From: an archaeon
GTDB taxonomy: Archaea > Nanobdellota > Nanobdellia > SCGC-AAA011-G17 > VGLX01
DNA: 64,000 nucleotides
Assembly (NCBI GenBank): GCA_043810595.1
Contig: JBDRNX010000032.1
Span: 38,219 to 102,218, forward strand
Direction of reading: 5' to 3'
The notes beneath the pieces are model-generated. The model saw only the letters and a list, made by a program, of their open reading frames with translations, did no database searches and was not told the DNA's origin. Of the stretch, positions 6,083 through 51,587 are shown one piece after another. Made by a program: the position numbers and the translations under genes. Position 1 is the first letter of the stretch. Every line of letters begins with the position of its first letter.

Positions 6083-6367
6083 ATGGCAGATAGGCCTATA
6101 GAAAAGTGGAGGATCGGCAACATAGAGGCCGCCCTCTGGGAAAATAGGAGGACCATGAACGGTGATGAAGTCACCTACTGGACTGTCTCGTTGGGCAGAA
6201 GCTTTAAAAAGAAGGACGAAGGCATATGGCGTAACGAAGTGATAAACAACCTGAGGAGGAATGATATACCAAAGCTGATTGCAATCCTTCAGAGGGTTCA
6301 GGACCACTTGTATTTTAATCTAAACAAAGACAAAGAAGCCAAGGAAGAAGTTGAGGATGAGGAGTGA
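6083..6367 (+). CDS. Hypothetical small protein
   Basis: ORF preceded by GGAGGTATTTGAAA ribosome-binding site. No recognisable family. Confidence 0.4.
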   Translation: MADRPIEKWRIGNIEAALWENRRTMNGDEVTYWTVSLGRSFKKKDEGIWRNEVINNLRRNDIPKLIAILQRVQDHLYFNLNKDKEAKEEVEDEE

Positions 6368-6376
6368 GGTGGAAGC

Positions 6377-19267: not shown

Positions 19268-20052
19268 TTTTTGAGGAGTTCCCCTTCGCCTCCTTCTTTT
19301 TTTATGACTTCTATCGCCTTGTTTGCTACTTCTTGTATTTCTTTTTCTCCTGTTTTGTAATCGCTTGTTGTTAGAACGAGTCTGTATTTCGGTGCGCTTA
19401 CGTAGCTTATTTCAAGCTCGTATTTCTTTTCTTTTGCTACCTTTTCAGCTTCTTTCAAGGCTTTTTTTATCAGCTCTATCCCTTCTGGTGATTCGCTTGT
19501 GAGCATTAACGATGTTTCTATCTTTACTTTTATTGGTTTTATCTTGTCTTTTAGTATTTCTTCAAATGTTTTTTGGTATTTTTTTGGTACCTTTGCTTTT
19601 TCCATTGTTGTCGTGCCTGCTATGAATTCCTGGAAGAACGTGTTGAAGTTTCCGTACTCTTCCACTATGCCTTTGCCGAATTCGTTGTAAATTTCTTGCA
19701 CAGTTGTTTTTGTTTTTTGTGCCAACCCTTCAAGAATCTTTTCTGCTCTCTGCTCCTGTTTGTATTCCTCGTTTTTGTGTTTTTTTACTGATAAGGGTAC
19801 TCTTCTTAGAGAGAGGTCTATCTGTCCTTTTTCTTTGTTTATCCTTAAAACCTTGCACACGAGTTTTCTTCCTTCTTTTACGAAATCTCTTATGTTTCTT
19901 ATTCTTCCCGGTGAGATTTCCGATATGTGTATCATCGCTTCCTTGTTTTCGTACTCGTCCAGGTCAACAAAAACTGAGTGTGGGAATATTTTCTTGACTG
20001 TGCAGATTACGAATTCTCCTTCTTCCGGTATTCCTGATTTCTTGTAGAACAT
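19264..20052 (-). CDS. eif2a: Translation initiation factor 2 alpha subunit (aIF2-alpha)
   Basis: N-terminal S1 domain (GEFVICTVKKIFPHSVFVDLDEYENKEAMIHISEIS). Sits in the conserved L44e-S27e-aIF2a-Nop10 operon. Confidence 0.85.
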   Translation of the reverse strand: MFYKKSGIPEEGEFVICTVKKIFPHSVFVDLDEYENKEAMIHISEISPGRIRNIRDFVKEGRKLVCKVLRINKEKGQIDLSLRRVPLSVKKHKNEEYKQEQRAEKILEGLAQKTKTTVQEIYNEFGKGIVEEYGNFNTFFQEFIAGTTTMEKAKVPKKYQKTFEEILKDKIKPIKVKIETSLMLTSESPEGIELIKKALKEAEKVAKEKKYELEISYVSAPKYRLVLTTSDYKTGEKEIQEVANKAIEVIKKEGGEGELLKK

Positions 20053-21316: not shown

Positions 21317-23023
21317 ATGCAATCTAGGGTCAGGAAAGAAGATAATCTTGCTATTTTGAAGCGTAATGATACTTACATGAAGGATGATGTTTTGAGGGTT
21401 CTTGAGCCTTCTTACCTCACTCCGGGCAGGGGAGTTACTCGCAGGATAGATTCTTTTATAGGGGGTTTGGACGGAAAGCCTGTTACCGGTACGGATATTC
21501 ACAATTTTTATCGTAAGACCTTGAATTGGGAAAAGCTTTATGACGTAGCCAATTCTGCGGGGGTTTCCAGTTCTATAGTTAACGATTTTCTGGGGAAGCA
21601 TCCTAATTACGGTATTAAGGTTTTTACAGGAGTTCAGAATTTTGTTATTTGCAACCCCTTGGTTGTTAAGGAGTTGGGCGGTCCTGTCAAGAAGTTTTCA
21701 AAGCGTCTCAGTCAGAGCATAAGCAAGAAGCTGGAATTGATTTGTGGTGATGTTTTTGTTAAGTTTGATGATATGAAGTCTAAAGATATTGATTACTGGA
21801 AGCTTAAGCCTTTTTTTGATAGTCACGTTAAGAGTTTCAAGGGGGATTTTATTCCTGCTTCCCGGGTTGTTTTGCGTGACGGTAAGTCTGAAGGTGTGGC
21901 TTACTTCAACAGGGAGTTTTATAACATACTTGTTAAGAGCTCTTACAACGGCATAACAATAAACAAATACCCTGAGCCGAGTCAGAGGTTTGATATGTCA
22001 GACCTTTTGAAAGAGCCAACTATCTACAATTTTCCAAAAGAACGAAGGCTCTTGACTCGTGAGGAGGAAGTTGAGTTGAGTAATAAATTCTTAACCATTT
22101 TGGGTAAGATAAGGAAGGTAGAGTCTAGGATTGGTTTGTCATCTGTTGGTATTAAGCGTGTTGCAAAATTGATGGGTGATGCTTATTCTTATGTTTCAAC
22201 GGATAAGAAGAGGTTTAGTAAGGGGGCTCTTGATGCAGCTCTTAGTAAGATTTCTGAACTTGAGGACCATGCTAATTATTATGGTTCCATAATGTTGTGG
22301 CATAATCACGGTTTAATAAGGAAGCGTGCTATTCATTTCGCGAGTTATGCTAAATCTATTACGAGGGATGAGTTGGAACAGGAGGGGAGGCTTGGTGTGA
22401 TGCGTGCATTTAAGAAGTTTGATCCTTCAAAAGGTTATAAGTTCTCTACTTATGCTTCTTGGTGGATCGATCAGGCCATGATCCGGGAGATAATTGATAG
22501 GGATAATCTGATTAGGGTGCCAGTTTACTTGAACGAGTTGATTAATAAGACAAATAGGGTTATGAGAAAGTTTTTTGCTGAGAATAATCGCATCCCTGAC
22601 GATGAGGAGGTTTCAAGTATGATTGGTCTCCCTGTGGAGTATGTTAAGCGGAGCCGTGATGCTTGTGCGGTTAGGAAAACATCTTCTTTGAATAGGGTTG
22701 TTGTTGAGGACGGTGACTCAGAATTGGAATCGTTGGTTGTTTATGATAAGTATAGTAATCCTGAAGAGGAGATTATAGCTAGAATAGACCAGAGCAGCAG
22801 GTCTAAGGAGATTGATAGAATCCTTTCCATTTTGTCTTTTAGGGAGGCGGATATTCTGAAGAAGAGGTTTGGTATAGGCTGCAAAAGTGAGTTAACTCTT
22901 GCAGAGGTGGGTAAAAGTTATGTGCTCACCAGGCAGCGTATAAAGCAGATTGAAGAAGATGCTTTGAACAAGTTGAAGAAAAAATACGGGGATAAGCCTG
23001 AAATCAGGTCTTTCCTACAGTAA
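21317..23023 (+). CDS. Bacterial-type sigma-70 family RNA polymerase sigma factor with a ~235-aa N-terminal extension of unknown function
   Basis: Region 1.2 ([15 protein letters not shown]). Region 2 ([14 protein letters not shown]...[52 protein letters not shown]). Region 3 ([37 protein letters not shown]). Region 4.2 HTH ([50 protein letters not shown]). Confidence 0.8.
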
Positions 23024-26494: not shown

Positions 26495-27658
26495 ATGTTT
26501 AAGTTTTTGAAAGACAAGCTTGCAGGAGCCCTCTCTAAGTTCACAAAGAAAGTGGAGGAAGCTCCTGAGGTCAAGGAAGAAAAGCCTGAATTAGTTGAGA
26601 AAGTAGAAGAAAAAATAGAGAAAAAGCCGGAAGTTGTTAAAGAAGAAATTCCTGAAAAGGTAGAAGAAAAAGAAGAAATTCCTGAGGTGAAGGAAGAGCC
26701 ACCCAAAATTGAAGAGAAGAAGGAAGTTGTAAAAGAAGAGCCCAAGGTAGAAGAGAAGAAACCTGAAAAAGTTGAAAAGAAGAAGGGTTTCTTTGCTAGG
26801 CTGACGGAAAAGGTCACAACGACAAAGATTTCTGAAAATAAATTTAACGAATTGTTCTGGGATTTGGAAGTTGTCTTAATGGAGAACAACGTGGCTGTTG
26901 AAGTGATTGATAAGATAAAAAGCGATTTGAAGAAGGATCTTGTTGAAGTTCCGATAAAGCGTTCGGATGTCAAAGAAGTTATAGTTAAGAGCTTGAAGTC
27001 GAGCATAGAGGATTTGTTCAGGGAGCCTGATTTTGATTTGGTTGCTGAAATAAAAAAATCTGAGAAGCCTTATGTTATTGTTTTCGTTGGCATTAACGGT
27101 TCTGGAAAGACGACTACCATCGCTAAGTTCGTTCAGTACTTGAAGAATAATCATCTTACTTCTGTGATCGCAGCTTCTGACACTTTCAGGGCTGCTGCCA
27201 TCCACCAGCTTGAGGAGCACGGAAGTAAGCTTGGTGTTAAGGTTGTCAAGCACGACTACGGTGCTGACCCTGCGGCTGTTGCTTTTGACGCTGAGAAGTA
27301 TGCCAAGGCTCATAACATAGATGTTGTTCTGATAGATACTGCCGGCAGGATGCACAGCAACGTTAACCTTATTAATGAGATGAAGAAGATCATGAGGGTT
27401 GCTAAGCCGAACCTTAAGATTTTTGTTGGTGAAGCTATCACTGGTAACGACTGCGTTGAGCAGGCTAAAACTTTTAACGAGGCCGTAACACTTGACGGTA
27501 TAGTTCTTGCTAAGGCAGACATAGATGAGAAAGGCGGTGCAGCTATTTCTGTTAGTTACATTACTGGTAAGCCGATAATGTTCTTGGGTGTAGGTCAGGG
27601 GTATGGTGATCTGGAGAAGTTTGATAAGTACAAAATAATTAAGTCGATAGGACTTTAA
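26495..27658 (+). CDS. ftsY: Signal recognition particle receptor FtsY
   Basis: Lys/Glu-rich N-terminal A domain. NG domain with VIVFVGINGSGKTTTIAK, DTAGR and GKPIMFLGVGQ. Confidence 0.9.
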   Translation: MFKFLKDKLAGALSKFTKKVEEAPEVKEEKPELVEKVEEKIEKKPEVVKEEIPEKVEEKEEIPEVKEEPPKIEEKKEVVKEEPKVEEKKPEKVEKKKGFFARLTEKVTTTKISENKFNELFWDLEVVLMENNVAVEVIDKIKSDLKKDLVEVPIKRSDVKEVIVKSLKSSIEDLFREPDFDLVAEIKKSEKPYVIVFVGINGSGKTTTIAKFVQYLKNNHLTSVIAASDTFRAAAIHQLEEHGSKLGVKVVKHDYGADPAAVAFDAEKYAKAHNIDVVLIDTAGRMHSNVNLINEMKKIMRVAKPNLKIFVGEAITGNDCVEQAKTFNEAVTLDGIVLAKADIDEKGGAAISVSYITGKPIMFLGVGQGYGDLEKFDKYKIIKSIGL

Positions 27659-27691: not shown

Positions 27692-28375
27692 TTGTTAACA
27701 CTTTCTATGGTTAAAAAATGGTGTCCTCTTATTATTTTATTACTTAGTTCTCTTTTTCTTGTTTTTTTGTTGGCTGGTTGTCAACAACCAGTTAAGTATG
27801 TTTGTTCTGACGGATCTGTAGTTAGTGACGCTTCGCTGTGTCCGATAGAAGAGGAAGAGACTGAGATTCCAATAACTACACCAGAAATAACCCCTACAGA
27901 TACCTTTGTTATGAAGATTAGTGAGTCTGTGGATTTTGAAGGCAAGACAATTAAGCTGTTGGATGTTTCAAATGATGGTAAGACTTTGGTGGATGTTTCT
28001 GGGGTTACCCGTGAGATTATGTCCACCAAGCAGGTGGAGATTGTTAATGGCTTGGAGGTTGTTGTGCTTAGCATAAATTACGTTAACACAGATCCCGATT
28101 CTAGCATGGCTACTCTGAAGTTTAGTCCGCTAACTCTCGGCTATGACGAGTACTTGTTTTACGTAGACAAGCCCCAGTCTATCGAGGGCATTGAGGTCAC
28201 TCTTACAGGTGTCGCGTCTTCTTATATACTAATCGACACGGATGATGTGTCTGGTATGAAAATCTACCCTGGAAGCTCTAAGATTGTTTCTGGCTTGAAC
28301 ATAACAAACTTCAAGGCTTTCCCTCGCGGCGTGAGAGCAGAGGACTATGCTATTCTGATAATTACTAAAGCTTAA
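27692..28375 (+). CDS. Lipoprotein-like secreted hypothetical protein
   Basis: Signal peptide with lipobox-like LAGC. Confidence 0.4.
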   Translation: MLTLSMVKKWCPLIILLLSSLFLVFLLAGCQQPVKYVCSDGSVVSDASLCPIEEEETEIPITTPEITPTDTFVMKISESVDFEGKTIKLLDVSNDGKTLVDVSGVTREIMSTKQVEIVNGLEVVVLSINYVNTDPDSSMATLKFSPLTLGYDEYLFYVDKPQSIEGIEVTLTGVASSYILIDTDDVSGMKIYPGSSKIVSGLNITNFKAFPRGVRAEDYAILIITKA

Positions 28376-28540: not shown

Positions 28541-29893
28541 ATGTTAGACAAGCTTGGAGATTCGTTGAAAGGTACGCTGAAAAAGATAGCCCAAAGTCTC
28601 TTTGTTGACGAGCGTTTGATTGATGAGCTTGTTAAGGATATTCAGCGTGCTTTGCTCTCTGCTGACGTTAACGTCAAGCTCGTTTTTGACCTTTCCAAGT
28701 CGATTAAGGAGCGTGCCTTGAAGGAGGAGCCTCCGAAGGGCATGACCAAGAAGGAGTACCTCATTAAGATTGTTTACGATGAGCTTGTGAAGTTTTTGGG
28801 TGAGGAAAAGGCTGAGATTGTTATAACAAAGAAGAGGCCTTTCAAGATTATGATGGTTGGTTTGTTCGGTTCTGGTAAAACAACCAGTATCGGCAAGCTT
28901 GCTAAGTATTATTCAAAGCGCGGCTATAAGGTTGCTGCCCTTGGTTTGGATGTTCACAGGCCTGCTGCCATGGATCAGCTCGAGCAGGTTGCTAAGCACG
29001 CTCAGATTCCTTCTTTCATCGAGCGTAAGGAAAAGGACCCTGTTAAGATTTACAAGAGGTTTGAGCAGGATTTGAACAAGTATGACTTGGTTATTATCGA
29101 TACCGCTGGTCGTGACGCTCTTTCCAAGGATTTGGTTAAAGAGATTGAAACTCTCAACAAGGTAATAGGTCCTGATGAGAACCTGCTTGTTATTTCCGCT
29201 GACATAGGCCAGGCAGCGCAGAAGCAGGCGCAGCAGTTTCATGATTCCTGTCACATTACCGGCATAGTTGTTACCAAGATGGACGGTACTGCCAAGGCAG
29301 GTGGCGCTTTGTCTGCTTGTGCCGTTACTCAAGCGCCTATCAAGTTTATTGGCGTTGGCGAGAAGATTGATGACTTAGAGGAGTTTAATCCCAAAGGTTT
29401 TGTTTCTCGCTTGCTCGGCATGGGCGACCTTGAGGCTTTGTTGGAAAAAGCTAAGGAAGCCATGAGTGAGGAGCAGGCAAAGGACTTAAGCAAGAAAATG
29501 CTTAAGGGTGATTACAATTTTATCGATTTGTATGAGCAGATGCAGGCCATGAAGAAGATGGGTCCTCTTTCTAAGGTTGTTGATCTTATTCCGGGCATGG
29601 GGAATCTTAACATTCCGAAGGACATGTTGAAGGTTCAGGATGAGAAGCTTGAGAAGTGGAAGCATATTTTTAATTCTTGCACAAGGGAGGAGTTGGAGAA
29701 CCCTGATATCATCACAAGGTCGAGGATTGATAGGATTGCTAAGGGTGCTGGTGTTTCTACAGTTGATGTTCGTGAGTTGTTGAAGATGTACAAGCAGAGT
29801 AAGAAGCTTATGAAGTTGATGTCTGGTAAGGGTGCTCCTAAGGACCTTAACAAGTTGGTTAAGAAGTTTAAAGGCAAGAAAATGAAGTTCTGA
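28541..29893 (+). CDS. srp54: Signal recognition particle protein SRP54
   Basis: IMMVGLFGSGKTTSIGKLA, DTAGR and a Met-rich M-domain at the C-terminus. Confidence 0.9.
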   Translation: MLDKLGDSLKGTLKKIAQSLFVDERLIDELVKDIQRALLSADVNVKLVFDLSKSIKERALKEEPPKGMTKKEYLIKIVYDELVKFLGEEKAEIVITKKRPFKIMMVGLFGSGKTTSIGKLAKYYSKRGYKVAALGLDVHRPAAMDQLEQVAKHAQIPSFIERKEKDPVKIYKRFEQDLNKYDLVIIDTAGRDALSKDLVKEIETLNKVIGPDENLLVISADIGQAAQKQAQQFHDSCHITGIVVTKMDGTAKAGGALSACAVTQAPIKFIGVGEKIDDLEEFNPKGFVSRLLGMGDLEALLEKAKEAMSEEQAKDLSKKMLKGDYNFIDLYEQMQAMKKMGPLSKVVDLIPGMGNLNIPKDMLKVQDEKLEKWKHIFNSCTREELENPDIITRSRIDRIAKGAGVSTVDVRELLKMYKQSKKLMKLMSGKGAPKDLNKLVKKFKGKKMKF

Positions 29894-29927
29894 ACAGAAA
29901 GATTTATATTCTGTTATTTGTCTTAAT

Positions 29928-30524
29928 TTGTATATGCAAAAAAAGGGTCAGCTTACTATATTTATTATTATAGGAATAGTTATTCTTTTTGTTTTGGCAG
30001 TTGTTTATTTCACTGTGTATGCTCCTAAGCGGCCTGAGATACCTCCTGAGCAGTTTTCTGATGTCCAGAAGTATGTTGATTCTTGTGTTGAGCAGACCTT
30101 GCGTGACGGCGTCACGAGGCTTGGCAGGGGTCCTAACCCTGACTATGAAGGAGCTCTTGCTGATTACGTAAAATCTTACCTTGTTTATTGTCCTAATTTT
30201 ACCGCTGACTTTCCTGAATTGGTTGTTAAGCCGAAAGATATAGTTTCTGTTAACACTACTCTCACTTCTGATAAGTCTATGGTCAGTGCTGTTGTCATCT
30301 ACCCCATAAGCATTTCTAAGGGGGCTTATACTAAGAACCTTGAGAGGTTTTATGCTGAGTACAGTCTTGTTGAACGTGGTTGTGCCTCTGTTCCTGTTAA
30401 CGTTAATTGCAGGTACACAGGGAGTAGTACTGTTACGGTCAAGGTTACTGGAATAACCTTCACCTTTAATCCAGGAGACTTTGTTGGCATAGGTGGTGTT
30501 TGCATAGCTTGTAAGATAGGATGA
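29928..30524 (+). CDS. Pilin-like protein with class III signal peptide
   Basis: MYMQKKGQLTIFIIIGIVILFVLAVVYF. A KKG|Q site is followed by a 22-aa hydrophobic stretch. First gene of a surface-protein operon. Confidence 0.45.
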   Translation: MYMQKKGQLTIFIIIGIVILFVLAVVYFTVYAPKRPEIPPEQFSDVQKYVDSCVEQTLRDGVTRLGRGPNPDYEGALADYVKSYLVYCPNFTADFPELVVKPKDIVSVNTTLTSDKSMVSAVVIYPISISKGAYTKNLERFYAEYSLVERGCASVPVNVNCRYTGSSTVTVKVTGITFTFNPGDFVGIGGVCIACKIG

Positions 30525-32197
30525 GAAAAAATTTATTTTTTGGAATCTGCATAGTCTCTTTATTTATTCTTATGTCTTTTTCCGTGGATTCTTTCTCCGC
30601 TATTAACTCGTGGGTTTGTAAGGAGATAAGCGCAGAGGGCAATTTTGATGACGAGAATTTTTTGCAGACCGTTATAATAAATTGCGATGTAGAGTCTTAT
30701 CAATTCACTACAGACGATTCTACTGTTTTTTTCGTAGCCAACTTCAATATAGATGGGGGGGATAACTTAACCTTTCAGATTGAGGGTCCCAGCGGTGTTG
30801 TTTACAGGGAAGAGGAAGGGGTAATTCCAGTTTCCATGCCAAACAGGTATGGTTTTTATTCTATGGATATAGCTGGCAAGGCCCCCGGAACATATCATGC
30901 AAAGCTTTTCAATAACGAAACAGTTGTTATCGATAAAATGTTTAGGGTAGCTGTTCCAGATTATACTTGCGAGACTAACGGATTTTTCTGCTGCCCCCTG
31001 GATAAGATGTGTATTAACAGGGTTGATTCAAGGTATGTTTGTAATTCTGGTGGTGTTTGTTGCAAGCCTCTTGGTTGTGTTACTCCTGTTTCTGGTGAGT
31101 TGACTGTTACCATAGTCCCTGATTGTTCTGCTGAAGGGCTTGAGGAGTGCGACAGGGTGATCGGCAACGTTTACGATTACAGTATTCACGGTCCTTTGGA
31201 AAATCCTCAGATGATAGAGCTTTTCTTCCGTGATATTGACGTTGATTGTTTCAATAAGGTTAACGTTGTTGTTGCTGTTTATGATGAGTTGGGTCTCAAC
31301 GAAGATAGTGCGTGGAATACTTATGAGAGTACTGTTACTCAGCTTTCTGGAAGTTATTACAGTGTTTCTGCTCAGATAGATTACATTGGTTACATTGCCG
31401 TTATTAAGAACAACAAGTGTGTTCCTACCGATTGTTTCATACCAGGTTTCAACACAGTTCCGTTTGATGGGTTGGTTCTTGCCGGCGATCCTATCCAGCT
31501 TGGTGTTTGTCAGGTGACTAAAGAGTGTGATGCTTCTGCAGGGGATATTTGTAACCGTAAATGCACTCAAAATCTCGATCCGGATTGTGGTACATTAATT
31601 TGTACCAGCCAGATGAATGATTGCTGCAACCCCGAGTATGATAAGGTTTGTGATTTGGATTGTGCAATTCGTATGGATCCAGACTGTGCTGATGAGACAT
31701 ATTTGGGTGGTTTGTGTTATCCAAGCAGTCCTGAGAGGCGCGGCTTTGCTTCATGTGATATTCACTGTACAGGGGCTGATCCTAATTGTGGGTCGCCAGG
31801 TTGTAATCCAGTTACTGATGACACCTGTGATCCTAACTGTCCTAAGCTCTCTAACAGAGTGGGTTATCTTGATATCGATTGTTGCAGCGAACATGGTATT
31901 CCTGTAACTGATGCAGGCGGTGATTGTTGTAACAGTGTTGAGAACGGCGTTTGTGACCCTGACTGTGTGCCTGGTTTGGATCGTGATTGTAATAAGCCAA
32001 TAACCTGCAATCCGAATGGTGTTAAGGAGTCGTTTGAGCAGTGTGACGGAACCGATTTCGGCATTTATGCAGGTTGTGCTTCATACATGGGCGAGGGTTG
32101 CGAGGGTAACTTGACGTGCACCTCAGCTTGTAAGATTGATAGTAGTGAATGTCAGTGCACTGATGATAATGGTGATGGTAATGGTAATGGATGGTGA
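30521..32197 (+). CDS. Secreted cysteine-rich protein with repeated Cx(n)DPDC/DPNC motifs
   Basis: N-terminal signal peptide. C-terminal half has about 40 Cys with recurring DPDC (CTQNLDPDCG, IRMDPDCAD, GADPNCGSPGC, CDPNCPK, CDPDCVPGLDRDC). Confidence 0.45.
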   Translation: MRKNLFFGICIVSLFILMSFSVDSFSAINSWVCKEISAEGNFDDENFLQTVIINCDVESYQFTTDDSTVFFVANFNIDGGDNLTFQIEGPSGVVYREEEGVIPVSMPNRYGFYSMDIAGKAPGTYHAKLFNNETVVIDKMFRVAVPDYTCETNGFFCCPLDKMCINRVDSRYVCNSGGVCCKPLGCVTPVSGELTVTIVPDCSAEGLEECDRVIGNVYDYSIHGPLENPQMIELFFRDIDVDCFNKVNVVVAVYDELGLNEDSAWNTYESTVTQLSGSYYSVSAQIDYIGYIAVIKNNKCVPTDCFIPGFNTVPFDGLVLAGDPIQLGVCQVTKECDASAGDICNRKCTQNLDPDCGTLICTSQMNDCCNPEYDKVCDLDCAIRMDPDCADETYLGGLCYPSSPERRGFASCDIHCTGADPNCGSPGCNPVTDDTCDPNCPKLSNRVGYLDIDCCSEHGIPVTDAGGDCCNSVENGVCDPDCVPGLDRDCNKPITCNPNGVKESFEQCDGTDFGIYAGCASYMGEGCEGNLTCTSACKIDSSECQCTDDNGDGNGNGW

Positions 32198-32231
32198 TAT
32201 TAAGTATGCAGATGAAGAGTGGTGATAAGGT

Positions 32232-35200
32232 TTGAAAAAATCCACTAAAAAGGTGATATACTTTATTTCTATAGCTATTTTGCTCATTTTTTTGGTAGTT
32301 TTAAGCTCTTCGTGTGACGATGATAAAGACGATTATTGTAGGGCCCCGAAGACTATTATGGGCTATTGTCACACAGAATGCGGTTCTCCTGCTGAATGTC
32401 ACCTTGCATACCCTGGTGATATAGGTACTGGTTGCAAGTTCGGGCAAGTATGTAATGATAATTGTCAGTGTGAGTGGGTGGACCAGGATTTAGATGGTTT
32501 TCCTTCCAAGAACATAGGATACATGCATTATACCAAGGATTGTGACGATAAAGACCCCACTGTTTTCCCTGGTGCTCCTGAGATTTGCGACAACAAGGAT
32601 AACGATTGTAATAATAAGGTTGACGTAGATGAGGGCGGTGTTTGTGATAAGCATGTTTATTTCTGTAAGTCTGATAACTTTAATACCCCCCTTGAAAGTT
32701 GTACCGATGGTCTGTGGTGTTCTGCTGAAACCATTAATACTTCAGCTGCTTGCAAATACACCACCACAATTGGGGATATAGGCACTCAGCCAGTTAAGAC
32801 TTTTGTTTGTGACAACTTCTTCCAGGACGGTGACTACGGTTGTTACAAGTTCGTTAACGGAGCGTTTAGTGTTGTGACTAGTTGCGATAACGATAACGAG
32901 CTTGATGAAACTGAAGAATGTGACGGCACTAATCTCGATGGTAAGAGTTGTGAATACTTCGGTTATTTAGGTGGAACTCTGAAGTGTGACAGGTGTACTT
33001 TTGACTTTGATGATTGTACAGGTGTTGTTTGCGATCATGATAATTTCAAGGATCCTGGTGAGGAATGTGACGGCACCGATTTGAACGGTAAGACTTGTCA
33101 GTATTTCGGTTTGCCTGGAAACGTCTTGACTTGTAACGATGTTTGCTTGTTTGATAAGAGGGGCTGTACAGGTGGTGTTGCTGAGTGTGGTAATAACGTT
33201 GTTGAAGCTGGTGAGACTTGTGACGGCTTCAACTTGAACGGTATGACTTGCAGTGATTTCGATTCTTACACAGGGGGCACTTTGGTTTGTAATGCGCCAG
33301 GTACTGTTAAGGAATGTCATTTCAACACAGCCAGTTGTACTCCTGATAATCCAGGCATCTGTGGTAATAATCAGATAAATGATGGTGAGGAGTGTGACGG
33401 CATGAATCTTGATGGTAAGAGCTGTACAGACTTTGATAATTTCATCAGCGGTTCTTTGAGTTGTTATCCTCAGGGTAACGCTCTTGCTTGTCTACTTGAT
33501 ACAAGTCAGTGTGTCGCTCCTCAGCCCGTCTGCGGTAACGCAATAGTGGAGTCTGGTGAGGAGTGTGACGGTTCAAATCTGAACGGTCAGTCTTGTACCT
33601 CTATGGGCTTTGCTGGTGGTACTTTGTTGTGTGAGGTTGATTGCAGCTATGATTACAGCAGCTGTGAGAGCGTATCTTGTGATAACGATAACGCTGCCGA
33701 GCCTGGCGAGGCTTGTGACGGTACGGATCTCGATGGCAGGATTTGTCAGTTCTTCGGCTTTACTGGCGGAACTCTTGAGTGCAGTAATAATTGTGAGTTT
33801 AATTTCACTAAATGTAATAATTATGTATGTGATAATGATGGGGTTGCTGAGCCTGGCGAGGTTTGTGACGGTGATGATTTGAGGGATTGGACTTGCAATG
33901 ACTTGGACATGTTCACGGGAGGCCTGTTGCAATGTACTGATCTGTGTATGTTTGACAGGAGTGAGTGCAGTTTGATTTGTGATAACAATAACGTCGCTGA
34001 ATCTGGTGAGGAGTGTGACGGCAGTGACTTGAGAGGCAAGGACTGCAGTAACTTCGGAAGGTTCGGCGGATTCCTTCTTTGTAGCTTGTCATGTAAGTAT
34101 GACCTGGGCAGTTGCGGTCCTTCCTGTTTGGAGGATTGGGATTGTACTGCTTGGACGAACTGTTCCAAGATGTCCGATAACACAACTAGGGTTTGTACAG
34201 ACTTAACTGGTTGTGGTACTGAATATTCGAAGCCTAACGAGTTGAAGCCTTGTGACCCCGCAGTATGTGTAGATGATGATAACGATGGTTATTGTGCTTG
34301 CTTCGGTGATGCTGTTGGTTGCGATTGTGATGATACCCTTGCTGCGATACATCCTGACGCTAATGAGCTTTGCAACGGTGAGGATGATAATTGTGATGCC
34401 ACGATTGATGAGGGATGCCCTTGCGAGTTTAACACCACACGTATTTGCGGTGTTGATGAGGGTTTGTGCAGGGAAGGCATCCAGCGCTGCTTGAACGGCT
34501 TCTGGAGTTTCTGTAGCAGTAACTACATAGGTCCAAGACCGGAAGTTTGTGATAACGGTTTGGATGAGGATTGTGATGGTTATCCTGATGATGGTTGTAT
34601 CTGTGAGAATAATGCCACGCAGGAATGCGGCACAGATGTTGGTGAGTGTGAGAAGGGTACTCAGATTTGTTTCGGAGGTAACTGGACTGCTTGTTCAGGT
34701 GCCAAGACTGAAACTGCTGAGGTTTGCTCAGGTAAGAAGGATGAGGACTGTGATACTTTAATAGATTGTGATGATGATTCTTGCTTGATCAGCTCGGTTT
34801 GTGAAGATGGCGGTCCGGGTGGGCCAACTCCAACCTGCTTTGATAAGACTAAGAACCAGGGTGAGGAGGGCGTTGATTGTGGAGGTCCGTGCCCTGCTTG
34901 TCAGGAACTTTGTGGTTATGGCGAGATAACTTCCGAATGTTTGTGCGAAAGCGTTAAGAGAACTTCGGGTTACTGTTGCGGCGGCAATAGGTATCAGATT
35001 AATTCTTGCACATCTGGTTGTACAGATTCTGATGGGGATACTTTGTGTGATGAGGATGAGATACGTGACGGTACAGACCCGAACAATCCCGATACTGATG
35101 GTGATGGAATTAACGATAATGAGGACAGCTGGCCTCGCTGCAACCAGGACGGGAAGTGTGACTCTTCAAAAGATTACCCTGAAGACGCTGATAACTGTCC

Positions 35201-35615
35201 GGACGATTGTGGAGGTAAGAAAAAAGGTGGTGGCCTTGGCCTGTTGTGGTGGATTATTATAATACTTCTAATCTTGATAGTGTGTGCTATTACCGCTTAC
35301 TTTTTGATAAAGAAGGATATAATCAAGTTGAAGAAGAAAAAGAAGGAAGAGCCCAAGGTTGTTTTGGGTAAGCCTATGATGAAGTTCGGTGCCGGTACCA
35401 TTCAGCCGATTACCACTAAGAAGCCGGTGAGGGATGTTTCAAAGCTTGTTTCTTACATTGGGGGTTCTATAAAGAAGGGTGAGTCAAGGTTGAAGTTGAG
35501 GGAGTCTGCTTTGAAGGCCGGCTGGGGTAACGAGGAGATTAACAAGGCTTTCGAAAGCATAGATAAGGGTAGGAAGCAGTCCAACAAGAAGTTCTTCAGC
35601 CTGTTCAAGAAATAA
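32232..35615 (+). CDS. Giant (1127 aa) cysteine-rich repeat surface protein with C-terminal TM anchor and basic cytoplasmic tail
   Basis: Signal peptide. Eight ~45-aa repeats of form C(G/D)N..(E/P)GEECDG.(N/D)L.G..C..FG...G(T)L.C...C.FD...C, reminiscent of Myxococcus-type Cys-rich repeats. TM helix LGLLWWIIIILLILIVCAITAYFLI near the C-terminus. Lys-rich tail. Confidence 0.6.
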   Translation: MKKSTKKVIYFISIAILLIFLVVLSSSCDDDKDDYCRAPKTIMGYCHTECGSPAECHLAYPGDIGTGCKFGQVCNDNCQCEWVDQDLDGFPSKNIGYMHYTKDCDDKDPTVFPGAPEICDNKDNDCNNKVDVDEGGVCDKHVYFCKSDNFNTPLESCTDGLWCSAETINTSAACKYTTTIGDIGTQPVKTFVCDNFFQDGDYGCYKFVNGAFSVVTSCDNDNELDETEECDGTNLDGKSCEYFGYLGGTLKCDRCTFDFDDCTGVVCDHDNFKDPGEECDGTDLNGKTCQYFGLPGNVLTCNDVCLFDKRGCTGGVAECGNNVVEAGETCDGFNLNGMTCSDFDSYTGGTLVCNAPGTVKECHFNTASCTPDNPGICGNNQINDGEECDGMNLDGKSCTDFDNFISGSLSCYPQGNALACLLDTSQCVAPQPVCGNAIVESGEECDGSNLNGQSCTSMGFAGGTLLCEVDCSYDYSSCESVSCDNDNAAEPGEACDGTDLDGRICQFFGFTGGTLECSNNCEFNFTKCNNYVCDNDGVAEPGEVCDGDDLRDWTCNDLDMFTGGLLQCTDLCMFDRSECSLICDNNNVAESGEECDGSDLRGKDCSNFGRFGGFLLCSLSCKYDLGSCGPSCLEDWDCTAWTNCSKMSDNTTRVCTDLTGCGTEYSKPNELKPCDPAVCVDDDNDGYCACFGDAVGCDCDDTLAAIHPDANELCNGEDDNCDATIDEGCPCEFNTTRICGVDEGLCREGIQRCLNGFWSFCSSNYIGPRPEVCDNGLDEDCDGYPDDGCICENNATQECGTDVGECEKGTQICFGGNWTACSGAKTETAEVCSGKKDEDCDTLIDCDDDSCLISSVCEDGGPGGPTPTCFDKTKNQGEEGVDCGGPCPACQELCGYGEITSECLCESVKRTSGYCCGGNRYQINSCTSGCTDSDGDTLCDEDEIRDGTDPNNPDTDGDGINDNEDSWPRCNQDGKCDSSKDYPEDADNCPDDCGGKKKGGGLGLLWWIIIILLILIVCAITAYFLIKKDIIKLKKKKKEEPKVVLGKPMMKFGAGTIQPITTKKPVRDVSKLVSYIGGSIKKGESRLKLRESALKAGWGNEEINKAFESIDKGRKQSNKKFFSLFKK
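32877..34125 (+). repeat. Eight tandem ~135-nt coding repeats (Cys-rich modules) inside the 1127-aa gene
   Basis: Recurrent GEECDG / GETCDG / GEACDG / GEVCDG cores at ~45-aa spacing. Confidence 0.6.
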
Positions 35616-35646
35616 GTTTTTAAACTGTTCTTTTTTCTTTCTCATC

Positions 35647-37367: not shown

Positions 37368-38000
37368 ATGGAGATAAATCCTGAAATAGCTGAGCTTTGT
37401 GGCATCATTTTAGGAGATGGTCACTTACATAATACTGAGAACAGGATTACCATAACTGGTTCTGTAGATGACTTACATTACTACAAAGGATATGTCATAC
37501 CTTTATTTCAGAAAAACTTTGGAGAAACTCCAAAGTTAGTGCCAGTCAAAGATAAAAATGCGTGGAAATTAGTATTACAAAATAAGGTGGTTTTTATGTT
37601 TTTTATTAATGAACTGGGTTTAGTGAGAGGTAGGAAGACAAATATAAAAATTCCGACAAGGATATCCTGCTCTAGAGAACTGCTAATCCCTTTCATGAGA
37701 GGGTTATTTGATACGGATGGTTACCTAAAATTTGCTAAACAAAACAGAGATGTTAATTATTACCCTCGAATGAGGCTTACTTTGTATAAAAATGAACTTT
37801 CGCTTAGTCTGTCTAAAGTTTTTAAAAAGTTAAATTTTAACTTTAATAAATGTGTAGATAGAAGATATAACACAATATGCTATGAAATCTCTGGGTCTAT
37901 GATGTTAAATAGGTGGATGGAAATGATAGGTACTTCTAACCCTAAACACCTTGTCAAATACTTTCTTTGGAAAAGACAAGGTTACGTATCTATTATATAA
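37368..38000 (+). CDS. LAGLIDADG homing endonuclease, two-motif monomeric type, free-standing
   Basis: Motif 1 LCGIILGDGHL and motif 2 FMRGLFDTDGYL. Own AT-rich upstream region with TTTATAAAA. Confidence 0.7.
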   Translation: MEINPEIAELCGIILGDGHLHNTENRITITGSVDDLHYYKGYVIPLFQKNFGETPKLVPVKDKNAWKLVLQNKVVFMFFINELGLVRGRKTNIKIPTRISCSRELLIPFMRGLFDTDGYLKFAKQNRDVNYYPRMRLTLYKNELSLSLSKVFKKLNFNFNKCVDRRYNTICYEISGSMMLNRWMEMIGTSNPKHLVKYFLWKRQGYVSII

Positions 38001-38052: not shown

Positions 38053-38168
38053 AGCCCCGTAGAAGAGAAAAAACTCTGCGGAATGTAGCGGCCAAATTAG
38101 GTCAAAACTAAGGCGATTCATTCCGCCCTTTGGAGGCGGAGACGGAGGTTCAAATCCTCCCGGGGCTA
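38053..38168 (+). tRNA. tRNA gene with a ~44-nt insertion. Identity uncertain; possibly Gln(UUG) with an intron between the D-arm and the anticodon stem.
   Basis: Hand-folded. Acceptor AGCCCCG/CGGGGCT. T-arm GGAGG-TTCAAAT-CCTCC. Candidate anticodon arm CCGCC-CTTTGGA-GGCGG. 8-bp hairpin GCGGAATG/CATTCCGC. Tandem ATAGCCC duplication at the 5' end. Confidence 0.45.
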
Positions 38169-38216
38169 TCCTTTCTTTTCACAATCTTTATATATTTATT
38201 CTCCTTACAATTGTTT

Positions 38217-38519
38217 ATGCCTGCACCTATTGTTAAAATTTTATTTTTGTTAATTACTCTTGTATTTCTGTTGTTTAGCGGATGCGTGCAGCAAGGAAAA
38301 GATATAAAATCCATCTGTTGTGAACAATGTGTAGAGGCAGGTGAGGGTGATGTTCGTGGTTTTGACACCAGTTCTGAAACCTGCTCATATTATAGGGATG
38401 TTCCAGTATTTGAAAACGGGCTTCCTACCGATAGGAAACTATTTAGTTCTGAATGTGTGACTTATTTTAATAACAGTCCTATGACAGTTAGAGAATGTAA
38501 GGCAACCTTAGGAGAATAA
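38217..38519 (+). CDS. Small Cys-containing lipoprotein-like protein
   Basis: Signal peptide ending LFSGC. Overlaps the tRNA 3' end if the longer ORF start is used, so the internal Met at 38217 was taken. Confidence 0.35.
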   Translation: MPAPIVKILFLLITLVFLLFSGCVQQGKDIKSICCEQCVEAGEGDVRGFDTSSETCSYYRDVPVFENGLPTDRKLFSSECVTYFNNSPMTVRECKATLGE

Positions 38520-43814: not shown

Positions 43815-45809
43815 ATGCGAAAAAGAGGTCAGGTGACCGCCTTTATCATCCTCGGCGTCATCATAGTTGCTTTGGTTGCCATCGGTATCTACTATCGAGA
43901 TTCTTTAATGGAGTCTCTTTCTTCTATTGGGGTCGTTGGCGGTGTAAAGGTTCCCGAGGAATTCCAAGAGATTAATTTTTACGTTGAGGATTGTGTTAAT
44001 GATATTTCCGAGGATGGCATAAGATTGTTGGGCTTGCAGGCTGGCTATCTTTCTATTCCAGAAGATTCTATTCCTGCCGGCCCAGCAAATCTTTTTTCCA
44101 ACCGATTGGGTGTTTTTCCCAACGGACATATGGAGGTGCCTTACTGGTTTTACGTTACAGCCAATAACATACCTAGGGACGCAACTCCTTCCATAGGTTC
44201 TATGGAACAAGGCCTTGCTACTTACATAGATTCCAATTTAGATGATTGTATCGATAATTTCACCGAGTTTGACAGGTTCAAAATAGCTCCGAGGAATCAT
44301 AAGACTTCTGTGAAGATTAAGAAGGATGCTGTTGATGTCGAAGTTTCATTCCCTATAACTGCGGAGCTGGATGATAAGGTTTACAACTTCAAAGAGTTCA
44401 AGGTTGAGGTTCCTGCTGCTCTGGGCAAGCTTTACAGCATGGCTTTGCAGATACAAGATAGTGAGAACACAGATTATTTCCTTGAGGATAAGACTTATGA
44501 CGTTCTTGTTTTGTATGAGGAGATTCCCTTATCTGAGACTGACTTTAGTTGTTCCCCTAGGATTTGGTCTAAGACTAAGGTTACTGAGGATTTCAAGAGA
44601 TTTCTCTCCTATAACGTTCCTGCGATAAAGGTGAAGGGTGCTGATTATAACATGTTGCCGGGTCGTAAGTACTTTGAGTGGGGTGCTTTGGAAACTTCTT
44701 ATCCTGACACGAGTGTTAATTTCATGTATTCTAGCTCTTGGCCCATCTACCTTGATGTCGTTCCTGCTGAGGGCGATGTTCTTAAGGGCGATGAGTTCTT
44801 GAGGGAGAATGCAGGTGAGGCACTTTCCTACCTCTCGTCTTTTGTGTGCATTAACCAGTATCATTTTATTTACGACATCAAGCATCCTGTTCTGGTTGTT
44901 TTACACGATGACGAATCTTTCGGTGGCCGGGGTTTGGACTTCCAGTTTGCTACCATGGTTGTTATCGATAACAATCAGCCTAGGGAGAACACGGCTCAAG
45001 ACTTGGGAATACCGGATGACGTTACTACCAATGAGATTTGCAAGTATGCGAGTTCAAAAATCACGATTAATGTTTTGAGACCTTCCTTTGGTGCGTTTGT
45101 TCCTGTTCCTGATGCGGATGTTTCTTACAAGTGTATCACCTCCCTTTGTGACATCGGTAAGACAGGCTCAGACGGTTCCATCACTGCCAACTTCCCTGCT
45201 TGTATTAACGGTGCTGTCATCGCCAAGAAGGACGGCTTCCATCAGGGTAAGACAACTCTTTCGACTAACGAGCCTGCAAGCACGTCTGTTATTATCGAAC
45301 CTTATTATGATTTGAATGTTGATGTTAGGGTTTTGAGTCCCTCTCCGAGAATTCCTTTGGCTACCGAGAAGATTGTTTTTAACTTCGTCAACGAGGAGGC
45401 TGGCTACTCGACCTCTTTCATCTATCCTGATGATAAAAAACTTAAGCTTATTTCAGGAGACTATGAGGTTACCTCCTACGTGGTTGAGGAAAGTCCGTTT
45501 GAGATCACGATACAAGGTCAAGATGTGGAGCACTGCACCACGGTCCCTAAGGGTATTTTGGGGATATTTGGTGTTGAGGAAGAGAAGTGTTCAAGTGTTA
45601 ACATCCCACCTACCAAGCTGAAGACTCTTATTAAGGGCGGAGCTAACTTTAAGTTCACTGTTAACAGGAATGATTTGGCGTCAGCCACTAGGGTAGTGCT
45701 TTACACAGTTTCTGAAAAAACGCCTAGTACCTATGAAGAGCTTGCTGACGTTTATTCAAGTCTTCAAGAGCAAAAGTCATATTTCATTTATCCGAGGTTT
45801 GAAAGATGA
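43815..45809 (+). CDS. Large (664 aa) secreted protein with pilin-like class III signal peptide
   Basis: MRKRGQVTAFIILGVIIVALVAIGIYY (KRG|Q then hydrophobic stretch). The longer ORF start would overlap tRNA-Val, so the ATG at 43815 was taken. Confidence 0.45.
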   Translation: MRKRGQVTAFIILGVIIVALVAIGIYYRDSLMESLSSIGVVGGVKVPEEFQEINFYVEDCVNDISEDGIRLLGLQAGYLSIPEDSIPAGPANLFSNRLGVFPNGHMEVPYWFYVTANNIPRDATPSIGSMEQGLATYIDSNLDDCIDNFTEFDRFKIAPRNHKTSVKIKKDAVDVEVSFPITAELDDKVYNFKEFKVEVPAALGKLYSMALQIQDSENTDYFLEDKTYDVLVLYEEIPLSETDFSCSPRIWSKTKVTEDFKRFLSYNVPAIKVKGADYNMLPGRKYFEWGALETSYPDTSVNFMYSSSWPIYLDVVPAEGDVLKGDEFLRENAGEALSYLSSFVCINQYHFIYDIKHPVLVVLHDDESFGGRGLDFQFATMVVIDNNQPRENTAQDLGIPDDVTTNEICKYASSKITINVLRPSFGAFVPVPDADVSYKCITSLCDIGKTGSDGSITANFPACINGAVIAKKDGFHQGKTTLSTNEPASTSVIIEPYYDLNVDVRVLSPSPRIPLATEKIVFNFVNEEAGYSTSFIYPDDKKLKLISGDYEVTSYVVEESPFEITIQGQDVEHCTTVPKGILGIFGVEEEKCSSVNIPPTKLKTLIKGGANFKFTVNRNDLASATRVVLYTVSEKTPSTYEELADVYSSLQEQKSYFIYPRFER

Positions 45810-48800
45810 GAACAGAGTTGATTGCATTTTTCTGTATGGCTTTAGTAATTTGCATTCCCCTGACTTTGGCTGCTGATACTCAGGAGGTACTTAAAGGGGC
45901 TGAGCCTGAATTCAAGAGTATCGATGTTGATGAGTTTGAGGAGCGTGAGACAGGGGAGTCTATAGTTGTTGAGGTTAAGTCTTACGAGCCCCAAGTTTTG
46001 GTAGCTTCTGCCATAGAGCAGGATGATGTTCCTGTGTTTGTTTTCTTGACAGGTACCACCCTCGGCAGTTACAAAGGACCGGAGTTTGTCAGTGAGGGCA
46101 GGCTTACTGTTGTTAAGGAGGGCGACATATTCTATGGTGTTCCCCCTATCAAAAACGTTTACATAAGCGAGCGTGATTATGATAGCAAGTACGTTCGGTC
46201 TGTTACCTACAAAAAACCTAAGAACAGTTTGTATTCTCTTGACAACCTCGGTTACTTGATTGTTAATCTCAAGCAGATTCCCAAGGAAGCCGACGTTCCT
46301 AACATTATAGATGCTAACATGACTGTCAGGATTGAGTTTGATATGGAAAGGAGTTATGGTATCGGTAGGCAGACTTTGATATTGAGTGAGGAGGCTAACG
46401 AGAAGACTTTCCTCAACAAGGTTGACTTAAGGGATAACATGGTTTTCTCCGGTAATGCTTATGTTCGTGCTGTTAAGATTTCTGACGATTCTGTTGACAT
46501 TATGGTTTATGACACTGCGTTGAAAGGTCTTGGTAGCAGGACTAACCTTAAGGTGGGACAGATTTCCAGTGCTATAACTTTGCGTGGTACTCATTCCAAC
46601 CTTGTCCAGGATCAGTTCAGGTTGCAGGTTGATTCTATCGTTGATCCTCAGCGTGAGTACGCTGAGGTCGAGGTCAGCATTGACGGTTCGTTGCCTGAGA
46701 AGAAGATTCTTTACAAGGGCTCTACTTTGTATCCTGGCTCTAGTGTGACAGTTTCTGATGTTAGTAAGATTGCATCAGGTAAGGAGATTATAGAGTCTGT
46801 TAGGGTAGCAGCAACTTCAGGAACTTACATAGCAAGCCGTAATTACACCAGCAAGTATAACATCCTTAATGCCGAGATGAATAAGGAGGCTTATGAAAAT
46901 AAGATTTATAAGAATGGTGCTGATCTTCAGGAGGTTCTTAAGATTAGTAACTTCAAGTTTGATGATTTGAAGAATGCTTTTGGATTTGATAGCATAACGT
47001 TTGATCCGATAACAGTTAATGCTTTGACGGTCGATCAGGATTACAAGCCGACTACAGTTACTGGGAAGGTTAAGACTCTTGCTAGTGTTCTTTCTGACTT
47101 GAAGCTTTCCCCTGAGATAGTTTTTGATGAAGCGAACAAGAAGGTGATAATAAAGATTTTCAAAATCGCAGAGAGGGAGCTTGCTGATCCTTGCACGAGC
47201 CAGGATTTGGTTTACACCCAGACTGCTTATTATAATGAGGCTGCCAGGAAAACCTTAATGGGCTTTTTTGATAAGGAGGGCAAGCTGTCCAATCAGGAGA
47301 AGAAGCGTTTGCTTTGTTCCGCTATTGATGTTTTCAAGAGGGTTTCTGCTTCTTATGGCAATGAGATGGACGAGAATAATAAGGTTCGTTACGGTGCCGA
47401 AGCTGATTACATGATCGGCAAGGGTTATGATGAGCTTTCCAAATTGGACGACATAGTTAATGGTGAAGTTGCTTCGACAAATGCATTGAATTATTATAGG
47501 CGGGCTCAGTCTGCGGGTTTCATAACTTCTGATATTCAAACTAAGATAGAGGAGTTCAGCACCAATTTGGTAACTGGTGTTGAGGGTCACGACATAGTTG
47601 TTGATGATAACGGTCACGAGGTTATTATACACTTGTTGCAGGTTGTTGATAAGACAGGAGCCCAACTTGATGCTTCTGCCCGCATTTCAGTAAACAACAA
47701 GGCTGCTACTGTTTTCAGGACAGGTGAATCTTTGTTCCCCGGTGAGCCTAAGGATATGGACAGATGCAGGATTAAGGAGATTAAGAGTTCCAGCGTTATC
47801 GTTGAAAACTGTCCTAAGCATGATAAAGATGGGAACACATTGAAGGATACTGCCCTGCCTGATATCACTTTGAAGGAAAACGTTCTCACTACAATTGAGA
47901 ATTACAGGGTGATACTTCTGGGTACTGAGATTAACAAGCAAGCAACAGTTACAGTGTTGCCAGGTTCTGGTAAGTCTATGTTCTCTGAATCAAGTTTCAT
48001 GTTGCACATACCTGTTGAGAAGCGGGCTATCAAGTTGAATCCTGATAAGATTGACGATAAGATTAACAAGACTGAAGAAACTATTAAAAAACTGAATGAG
48101 ATTATAACAAATCTTGATAAGCTTATCAAGTCCTGGAAGGCTGTCTGCCTTGCCACTTTTGCTTTCCTTACCATAAAGAATTCTTTCGGCTTATTCGGCG
48201 GAGGTGCTGCTAGGGTCAGGGCTAGGGAGAGAGTTATGGTTGACAGTGGTTGGAGGAAGTATTGTGAGACGGATTCCGGTCCTGGCAAGACCTACAAGAG
48301 TTATGACGAGTGTATTTTTGAGCATGCTGATAAGATCAATCAGAACATCGATGCTGTTCAGAAGGCTCTTGAGTCTGCTGATAATAGTTACGCTAAAGGT
48401 TCTGATAATGCAGCAGGTGTTGACATAAAGGGGATTAAGGATTTCCAGAAGTCTAGCGGCGAGGAGCTTTATTCCGAAGAGAATTTCAAGAATCTTGTTT
48501 ACCTGAAGGAGTTGAATGATGCCTGTTCCAGCGGCGTGGGAAGTTTTGGTAACGACGCTAAGGGCAAGCCTTACCCGAACACGTGTGCCGATGTTTCTAA
48601 GAAGTACTCTGATGCCTTGTTTGAGATTCAGAGCGCTAATACCAACCTTGGTGGTGCTCTTACCGAGTTTAAGGATAAGAAGCTTGACAGCTTCGAAGCT
48701 TGGAAGAAGGAGCATAAGGAAGGTGCTCTTGCTGATTTCCTTAACGAGAGAACTTCTGAGGTTAACAAGTTGAAGTCAGAATCTCAATTCAAGACTTATG

Positions 48801-51586: not shown

Positions 51587-51587
51587 T

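Follow-up and report, generated by a model that had tools for sequence, protein, structure and literature searches.

We analysed a 64,000-nucleotide (nt) stretch of contig JBDRNX010000032.1 (positions 38,219 to 102,218; "the window" below), in which three adjacent open reading frames (ORFs) on the same strand, here called A, B and C, lie between srp54 and a kinase gene. These genes probably form a conserved three-gene cell-envelope cassette that specifies a surface stalk or adhesin of a host-dependent, Woesearchaeota-type DPANN archaeon. DPANN archaea are believed to spend their lives attached to other cells, and little is known of the proteins that mediate this contact. The assignment of the organism is based on the archaeal gene content of the window (RadA, aRF1, aIF2-alpha, TFIIB and a Cdc45/DHH-like protein) and on the labels of C orthologues: the closest species-representative genome with a C orthologue is labelled Candidatus Woesearchaeota, and another is labelled Candidatus Nanoarchaeia.

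The cassette is conserved in order and in the sizes of its products. Four related Woesearchaeota-type contigs (L001, L002/L003 and L004) keep the arrangement srp54–A–B–C–bud32, with A-like proteins of ~195 amino acids (aa), B-like proteins of ~500–550 aa and C-like proteins of ~1000 aa, and in these loci bud32 is followed by a carotenoid-synthase-like gene on the opposite strand. Upstream of A, the window contains ftsY (26495–27658), a gene for a 227-aa lipobox protein (27692–28375) and srp54 (28541–29893). Directly downstream of C is a 205-aa RIO1/Pkinase-type kinase (Pfam), Bud32-like by size; an earlier note on this DNA was right to describe the unit as wedged between srp54 and bud32. Five orthologues of C (P0002–P0006) are 50–65% identical to it. 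A GTDB scan with the single C protein gave one match, the already found Woesearchaeota contig. The A and B orthologues of L001, the closest Woesearchaeota contig, are separated by an additional ORF of 357 aa (5415–6488). As its product shows neither a signal peptide nor any resemblance to B, this ORF is probably an artefact of gene calling or a small insertion.

The most conspicuous feature of C, in which 116 residues (10.3%) are Cys, is an array of tandem units with exactly six Cys each, spaced C-x10/11-C-x9-C-x11/12-C-x2-8-C-x6-C. The earlier note had described eight Cys-rich repeats of ~45 aa in a protein of 1127 aa. The number of units and the length of the protein were correct, while the period is 49–58 aa. 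As an independent control, we used a hidden Markov model (HMM) built from 287 units of bacterial proteins only. This model recognised each of the eight units with 43.7–69.2 bits (E 1e-15 to 1e-23, profile positions ~2–49), and the whole array scored 372 bits versus −51 ± 12 for 200 shuffles. Hence the periodicity reflects homology, not composition, and low complexity is ruled out as its source. At the DNA level, TRF found no tandem repeat with a period of ~150 nt in the array region. As the units are, in addition, only 38–54% identical to each other, the array must be old and diverged. Together with the positional orthology described next, these results rule out a recent DNA-level tandem duplication or a slippage-prone array.

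Length variation of the array, a point raised in the earlier note, was found between genomes: there are eight units in C and P0003 and six in P0002, P0004, P0005 and P0006. In a matrix of unit identities, units 1, 2, 5, 6, 7 and 8 of C map to units 1–6 of the six-unit proteins. That matrix shows no counterpart for units 3 and 4, which would thus represent a lineage-specific insertion, or a loss elsewhere. In P0003 the distal array is reshuffled. Judged from these alignments, the array seems to evolve modularly, with positional orthology kept and units gained or lost.

To which family do the units belong? The earlier note had placed them in the Myxococcus-type class (DUF4215/TIGR02232). With the whole C protein, neither TIGR02232 nor PF13948 (DUF4215) gave a match at E ≤ 0.1. 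The array alone and a single unit scored 16.3 and 14.9 bits with PF13948 (cut-off 27), and a single unit scored 18.0 bits with TIGR02232 (cut-off 20.8; profile positions 4–26 of 38). These unit-level matches span unit residues 2–23 only. Bacterial proteins of 12 such units (P0014 and P0036) are also missed by both curated models, and in P0037 the above-threshold DUF4215/TIGR02232 match falls on a genuine short unit at the end of the protein. We extracted 32 genuine short units with four Cys (CGNG..E.GE.CDDGN...GDGC...C.VE), found interspersed among long units in individual bacterial proteins (P0044, P0067, P0108, P0112 and others). When the long units were compared with 20 of the genuine short units by hhalign, the two aligned with 94.5% probability (E 8.3e-8) over 19 columns, the half-motif CGNG..E.GE.CD.xN. 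Given the sub-cut-off scores and the restriction of the alignment to this half-motif, the unit is a related but longer repeat with six Cys and falls outside the curated family. Full membership in TIGR02232/DUF4215 was rejected, the match being partial and below the curated cut-offs, while per unit and over its full length the repeat matches the bacterial-only profile and so belongs to an uncurated family of long six-Cys units (~48 aa). Of the earlier assignment there remain the shared first half of ~19 residues and the Myxococcota homologues.

The two kinds of repeat thus have the opening half-motif CGNG..E.GE.CD(D/G).N in common, occur in the same Myxococcota proteins, and are both extracellular, acidic and tandemly repeated. 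They differ in that the curated repeat is ~30–38 aa long, has four Cys and is devoid of the second half of the six-Cys unit (GF.GG.L.C...C.FD.S.C). A search with C retrieved at least 1,146 proteins at E ≤ 1e-3; most are labelled Myxococcota or Deltaproteobacteria, and they cover the query almost only over the array (~36%). Among the best 120 matches about seven are archaeal, namely the six orthologues and one Diapherotrites protein, consistent with the statement in the earlier note that the repeat is not commonly reported in archaea. Over the eight-unit array, Myxococcota surface proteins such as P0008 ("lamin tail domain-containing protein"), P0014 and P0037 ("DUF4215 domain-containing protein") and the Diapherotrites protein P0117 are 35–42% identical to C. 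The bacterial long-unit proteins carry 6–27 units, fused to FG-GAP/VCBS, RCC1, SUMF1, SRCR, lamin-tail, PKD/CARDB, peptidase S8 or dockerin/cohesin domains, whereas C combines its array with MopE- and TSP3-type modules, a C-terminal transmembrane (TM) helix and a conserved cytoplasmic tail. Since the same arrays are fused to so many unrelated extracellular domains in bacteria, the array is probably a spacer or stalk module. In the literature, we found no link between DPANN archaea and Cys-rich surface proteins, and only a passing mention of DUF4215 in one paper.

AlphaFold2 (AF2) modelling of units 5–7 from a 52-sequence alignment of three-unit segments gave a mean pLDDT of 92 and a pTM of 0.56. 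The predicted units are small beta-hairpin modules, one of the three containing a short helix. High local and modest global confidence would fit rigid beads in a rod, their mutual orientation being uncertain.

The remainder of C fits an extracellular location of the array. The NCBI entry for C (P0001, "MAG: MopE-related protein [archaeon]", 100% identical) is called from Met43 and thereby omits 32232–32357, with loss of the signal peptide. All of P0002–P0006 begin with a basic and then a hydrophobic stretch followed by S-S-C (MKKS...SSC). Because of these signal peptides and the GGTGAT motif before the TTG at 32232, we regard the longer, TTG-initiated model as the better one. The lipobox region reads VLSSSC in C and ISSC, ASSC, TSSC, SSSC or SFSC in the orthologues, position −3 being non-canonical in most. 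The ectodomain has 115 Cys and, without Cys28, an even number (114). This parity fits lipid modification of Cys28 and pairing of the remaining ectodomain Cys. Three other proteins encoded on the forward strand of the window have canonical lipobox signal peptides (LLAGC at 27692–28375, FFMGC at 16092–17045 and LFSGC at 38130–38519), so that this DPANN archaeon appears to make lipobox lipoproteins.

Beyond the array, C continues as the earlier note had described it, with a CxC/DxD-rich stalk, a single TM helix (~1003–1027) and a Lys-rich tail ending in KKFFSLFKK. The ectodomain has a pI of 4.05 and the tail one of 10.3. Apart from Asp-rich motifs, the stalk holds G.C..G...C..G.W..C modules and a CGGPCPAC motif. 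Its TSP3-like loops scored 16.7–18.5 bits with TSP3_bac (PF18884), below the cut-off of 25 for membership.

B was described in the earlier note as a secreted protein of 558 aa rich in Cx(n)DPDC motifs, and both the signal peptide and six D[PR][DN]C motifs were found. Its orthologues support the ATG at 30521 and the signal peptide. The NCBI model (P0132, 537 aa) is N-terminally short compared with the orthologues, as it omits 30521–30583 and loses the signal peptide. The B family is narrow (15 matches), and B had no match in Pfam or NCBIfam. The C-terminus of B carries a ninth, diverged six-Cys unit, and with the bacterial-only HMM the B orthologues have none, one or two such units.

These observations suggest the following arrangement. 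The Sec signal peptide would export the acidic ~970-aa ectodomain of C, possibly with lipid attachment at Cys28, and this ectodomain would be built wholly of small disulfide-locked modules. The eight ~50-aa units would form its rod, the Asp-rich loops of the MopE and TSP3 types are putative Ca2+ sites, and the TM helix would anchor the protein with its conserved basic 100-aa tail in the cytoplasm. Most likely, the eight-unit array is a rigid spacer that holds out, or itself provides, the binding surface by which a host cell or a substrate is contacted. B may be a secreted Cys-rich partner ending in one copy of the same unit. A would be a small protein held in the membrane by a class III-like or signal-anchor N-terminus; belonging to a large DPANN family encoded upstream of large secreted-protein genes, it probably anchors, assembles or presents its cognate secreted protein.

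Several points weigh against a surface stalk or adhesin. C has no recognisable ligand-binding domain. The units gave no solved homologue in the PDB (Foldseek E ≥ 6; sequence searches E ≥ 0.28). Since the PDB thus offers no structural homologue, we infer the function of the unit from its architecture alone. The top non-significant matches were ADAM17 and ADAM22, whose disintegrin domain shares the opening VCGN..V.EGEECD. This match covers the first 14 residues of the unit only, with a profile E of 0.4 and Foldseek E of 6–10, and is a lead, not homology. The SSSC of C is not a canonical lipobox, and signal peptides, lipoboxes and cleavage sites were assigned by visual inspection and hydropathy. 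Extensive disulfide bonding is assumed in a probably anaerobic organism. Finally, the conservation of the cytoplasmic tail hints at more than a passive stalk.

All ten orthologues of A begin with M.K[KR]GQ, so that the ATG at 29934 is its likelier start. The 198-aa protein of the earlier note, with KKG/Q and a hydrophobic N-terminus (the slash marks the Gly after which a class III leader would be cut), was borne out and probably has 196 aa. It starts with MQKKG/QLTIFIIIG (in full, MQKKG/QLTIFIIIGIVILFVLAVVYFTVYA). The pattern M.K[KR]G/Q[LV]T.F plus ~20 hydrophobic residues is near-invariant among the ten, and M, K, G, Q, T, I, F, I, I and G are invariant in all of them. Behind this class III-like N-terminus (MQKKG/Q and ~23 hydrophobic residues) lie a linker rich in Pro and a domain of the alpha+beta type with six conserved Cys. 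Class III signals, as generally described, lose their charged leader and keep a hydrophobic domain of ~20 aa (PMC4858521, PMC6098224). The short basic leader of A, ending in Gly and followed by ~20 hydrophobic residues, agrees with the published definition (PMC4858521).

A type IV pilus-like locus would account for this N-terminus. A would then be a pilin that is cleaved after the Gly by a PibD-type peptidase and polymerised, and B and C would be pilus-associated or tip adhesins. Besides the agreement with the class III description (PMC4858521, PMC6098224), the N-terminal module of A heads proteins with variable C-terminal parts, as in pilins, and a second module gene in the window precedes the gene of a 1926-aa protein. 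However, neither Class_IIIsignal nor the archaeal pilin or archaellin N-terminal models of Pfam and NCBIfam matched A, and the N-terminus of its paralogue reached 8.2 bits against PF04021 (cut-off 23.7). The AF2 model of A (pLDDT 81), moderately reliable since its alignment held ten sequences only, consists of a helix (5–30), a low-confidence Pro-rich linker that splits this TM helix from the globular part, two helices (42–65 and 73–87) and then a beta-sheet. Two helices plus a sheet are not the continuous alpha-1 helix with an Ig-like domain of a pilin. Foldseek against the PDB returned nothing at E ≤ 0.001 for this model, and no pilin was among the top 50 matches listed; the best, all non-significant, were ARC6, CaMKII-hub and VirB8-type alpha+beta folds. 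A pilin fold is therefore not supported.

The genomic context was equally negative. Neither the ~40 ORFs scanned in the window nor the ±8 kb covered in each of six related loci (L001–L004, L006 and L007; precomputed Pfam lists) yielded a T2SSE-type ATPase, TadC or A24 peptidase. Pilin genes can, on the other hand, be unlinked from assembly genes. Proteins with the module of A reach 1,221 aa, unusual for filament subunits, and PibD processes non-pilins too (PMC4858521). Compared with known class III signal peptide proteins (type IV pilins and other PibD substrates), A has the basic leader ending in Gly and then Gln with ~23 hydrophobic residues, whereas it lacks a family-model match, a pilin-like predicted fold and linked pilus genes, and its conserved module runs past the hydrophobic segment to ~145 aa. 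Our literature search found nothing that links Woesearchaeota with class III signals. We therefore consider a pilus unlikely. That A is a pilin is not established, and of the term "pilin-led" used in the earlier note the N-terminal motif is what stands.

In an exhaustive profile search, the first 65–145 residues of A emerged as an N-terminal module of 2,791 representative proteins, 76–1,221 aa in length. Every named relative is called "hypothetical", and one is from Woesearchaeota. In the window, the ORF at 43815–45809 (664 aa) shares this K/R-G-Q module (E 3e-9). It is the first gene of a second cassette of this kind on the forward strand, in which a 1926-aa protein (45806–51586) and a 275-aa multi-TM protein (51537–52364) follow. 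The gene for the 1926-aa protein overlaps the 664-aa gene, and its product has a signal peptide, a Cys-rich C-terminus and no Pfam match. Genes with the module precede those of large proteins twice in the window, in L006 and twice in L007. L007 has two module genes, each 5′ of a large-protein gene; the first large product is a 750-aa protein with a clear signal peptide, and the second is incomplete, its gene being cut by the end of the locus. L006 has two module-bearing giants in tandem. From these gene pairs, a class III-like leader gene followed by a large secreted protein appears to be a recurrent cassette in the loci examined. Near A-module or C-like genes we also saw an unannotated 980-aa gene product in L002 (12582–15524) and, in L006, a 962-aa protein with MopE and CBM60 matches (19601–19666; the gene runs off the end of the locus). 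Each genome among these DPANN relatives seems to encode a considerable set of such large surface-type proteins.

A speculative extension, to which we give a small chance, is that the K/R-G-Q module proteins (A and its 2,791 relatives) are a DPANN-specific system for surface display or assembly, in which a small protein, kept in the membrane by class III processing or a signal anchor and bearing an NTF2/VirB8-like head, is encoded beside each large secreted protein and tethers or assembles it at the cell surface. The six-Cys unit would have passed between Myxococcota and DPANN archaea, and the conserved tail of C would link the stalk to a partner inside the cell.

The tail could also be read as the output of a transmembrane receptor or signalling protein whose Cys-rich ectodomain senses a ligand or contact and whose tail relays this to a partner in the cell. 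The tail of 100 aa is conserved in the six orthologues, KKFFSLFKK included, with the motif RD[IV]S.LV.Y...[IL]KKG.S..KL.E.ALK.GW..EEI..AF. A helical-looking core of ~40 aa (L..Y...[IL]KKG.S...L...L..GW..EE[IV]..A) is also seen in the C-terminal tails of P0024, P0027 and P0079, more distant type-I Cys-rich membrane proteins with different ectodomains, and a bud32-like protein kinase gene lies immediately 3′ of C. Against signalling, the tail gave no Pfam match at E ≤ 10 and has no known signalling domain, and anchoring, sorting or cytoskeletal docking would explain its conservation equally well. Moreover, Bud32 is a housekeeping kinase of the KEOPS type, and its gene has a TATA-like box of its own (TTTAAA at −28, inside the T-rich tract that follows C). 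A receptor is thus improbable.

We also see a slim chance that C and B are structural components of the envelope, such as an S-layer-like or wall scaffold, and not adhesins. These two proteins are large and acidic, and they are either anchored in the membrane or secreted. Their cassette occupies a fixed chromosomal position beside housekeeping genes, and units that keep their positions between orthologues suggest purifying selection rather than fast diversification. Yet neither C nor B matched an S-layer domain in Pfam or NCBIfam, and sequons are sparse (0.7 per 100 aa). A beads-on-a-string architecture is also unlike that of a lattice former, and the number of units varies.

PF11617 (Cu-binding_MopE, a putative metal-binding motif) is the sole Pfam family above threshold in C, with 53.6 bits (cut-off 27) over three stretches, and from this match C takes its NCBI name. 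The fragments flanking the array scored 43.4 and 33.7 bits, the latter being the membrane-proximal stalk. That C, like Methylococcus MopE, handles copper or some other metal is nevertheless very improbable in spite of these matches and its very many Cys and Asp, because PF11617 is a 30-residue motif that makes up less than 10% of C and is not the MopE copper site, because the Cys stand at fixed, even-numbered positions in each unit, as is typical of disulfides, and because no other metal-binding domain was detected in C.

The expression signals fit the A–B–C cassette as a single transcription unit, at the level of motifs. A and B overlap by 4 nt (ATGA), as claimed earlier and confirmed by the coordinates (29928–30524 and 30521–32197), B and C are 34 nt apart, a TATA-like box precedes A only, with none in the 80 nt 5′ of B or of C, and an oligo-T tract follows C. 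Similar TTTATA boxes occur ~30 nt 5′ of ftsY and srp54. A scan for bacterial-type promoters and terminators, a method not applicable to archaea, remained at background level. The description as a "surface-protein operon" in the earlier note is supported by the conserved gene order, the signal peptides, the acidic Cys-rich ectodomain and the basic tail. The features of the cassette are collected in the table.

Table. Features of the A–B–C cassette, in coordinates of the window
Feature	Coordinates	Strand	Remarks
TATA-like box TTTATA	29903–29908	+	31 nt 5′ of the gene A ATG; candidate archaeal promoter for A–B–C; motif match only
Gene A	29934–30524	+	196 aa from ATG; 198 aa from TTG at 29928
Gene B	30521–32197	+	558 aa; Sec-type signal peptide; 49 Cys (8.8%); 4-nt ATGA overlap with A
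Ninth, diverged six-Cys unit, C-terminus of B (aa 496–545)	32006–32155	+	window-unit HMM E 2e-5; bacterial-only HMM 24.2 bits, E 1.8e-9
Gene C	32232–35615	+	1127 aa; type-I membrane protein; TTG start; Shine-Dalgarno-like motif GGTGAT upstream
Signal peptide of C (aa 1–27) and Cys28	32232–32315	+	ends in lipobox-like SSSC; Cys28 conserved in 6/6 orthologues
MopE-type putative metal/Ca-binding motif 1 (aa 103–131)	32538–32624	+	within N-terminal Cys-rich region aa 28–214
Array of eight six-Cys units (aa 215–633)	32874–34130	+	units start at 32874, 33021, 33174, 33348, 33519, 33669, 33819 and 33969
Units 3 and 4 (57–58 aa, CGNN type)	33174–33518	+	no positional counterpart in six-unit orthologues P0002, P0004, P0005, P0006
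Membrane-proximal Cys/Asp-rich stalk (aa 634–1000)	34131–35231	+	further MopE-type motifs, e.g. aa 698–727 (nt 34323–34412)
TSP3-like Asp loops D.D.DG..D..D (aa 932–965)	35025–35126	+	seen in the sequence
Single TM helix of C (aa ~1003–1027)	35238–35312	+	hydropathy window aa 998–1031, maximum 3.28
Conserved basic cytoplasmic tail (aa 1028–1127)	35313–35612	+	pI 10.3; no Cys; ends in KKFFSLFKK
T-rich tract after C, GTTTTTAAACTGTTCTTTTTTCTTTCTC	35616–35646	+	possible archaeal oligo-T terminator; sequence motif only

C itself is already deposited at NCBI and is an adhesin-like modular mosaic of known kinds of module. New are the long variant of the repeat, the unannotated K/R-G-Q module family with its pattern of gene pairs, and the recurring cytoplasmic tail. 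The locus is a conserved and easily recognised candidate for cell contact, consisting of a membrane-anchored Cys-rich stalk, a secreted partner that shares a module with it and a small class III-like protein. Three uncurated families, the long six-Cys unit (at least 1,146 proteins), the K/R-G-Q module (2,791 representatives) and the cytoplasmic tail motif, merit models of their own. Their curation would improve the annotation of "hypothetical" surface proteins of DPANN archaea and Myxococcota and would allow a proper test of inter-domain transfer.

Two further genes on the forward strand of the window deserve mention. A 568-aa ORF (21317–23023) matched Sigma-70 regions 2, 3 and 4 with 49, 38 and 48 bits, all above the Pfam cut-offs. 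The contig is otherwise archaeal, yet this product is a sigma factor of bacterial type, whose first ~320 aa are without domain assignment. A free-standing 210-aa ORF (37368–38000), with no obvious host gene around it, gave a weak LAGLIDADG_3 match (E 4e-4, 21 bits versus a cut-off of 22.5) and may be a homing-endonuclease-like gene.

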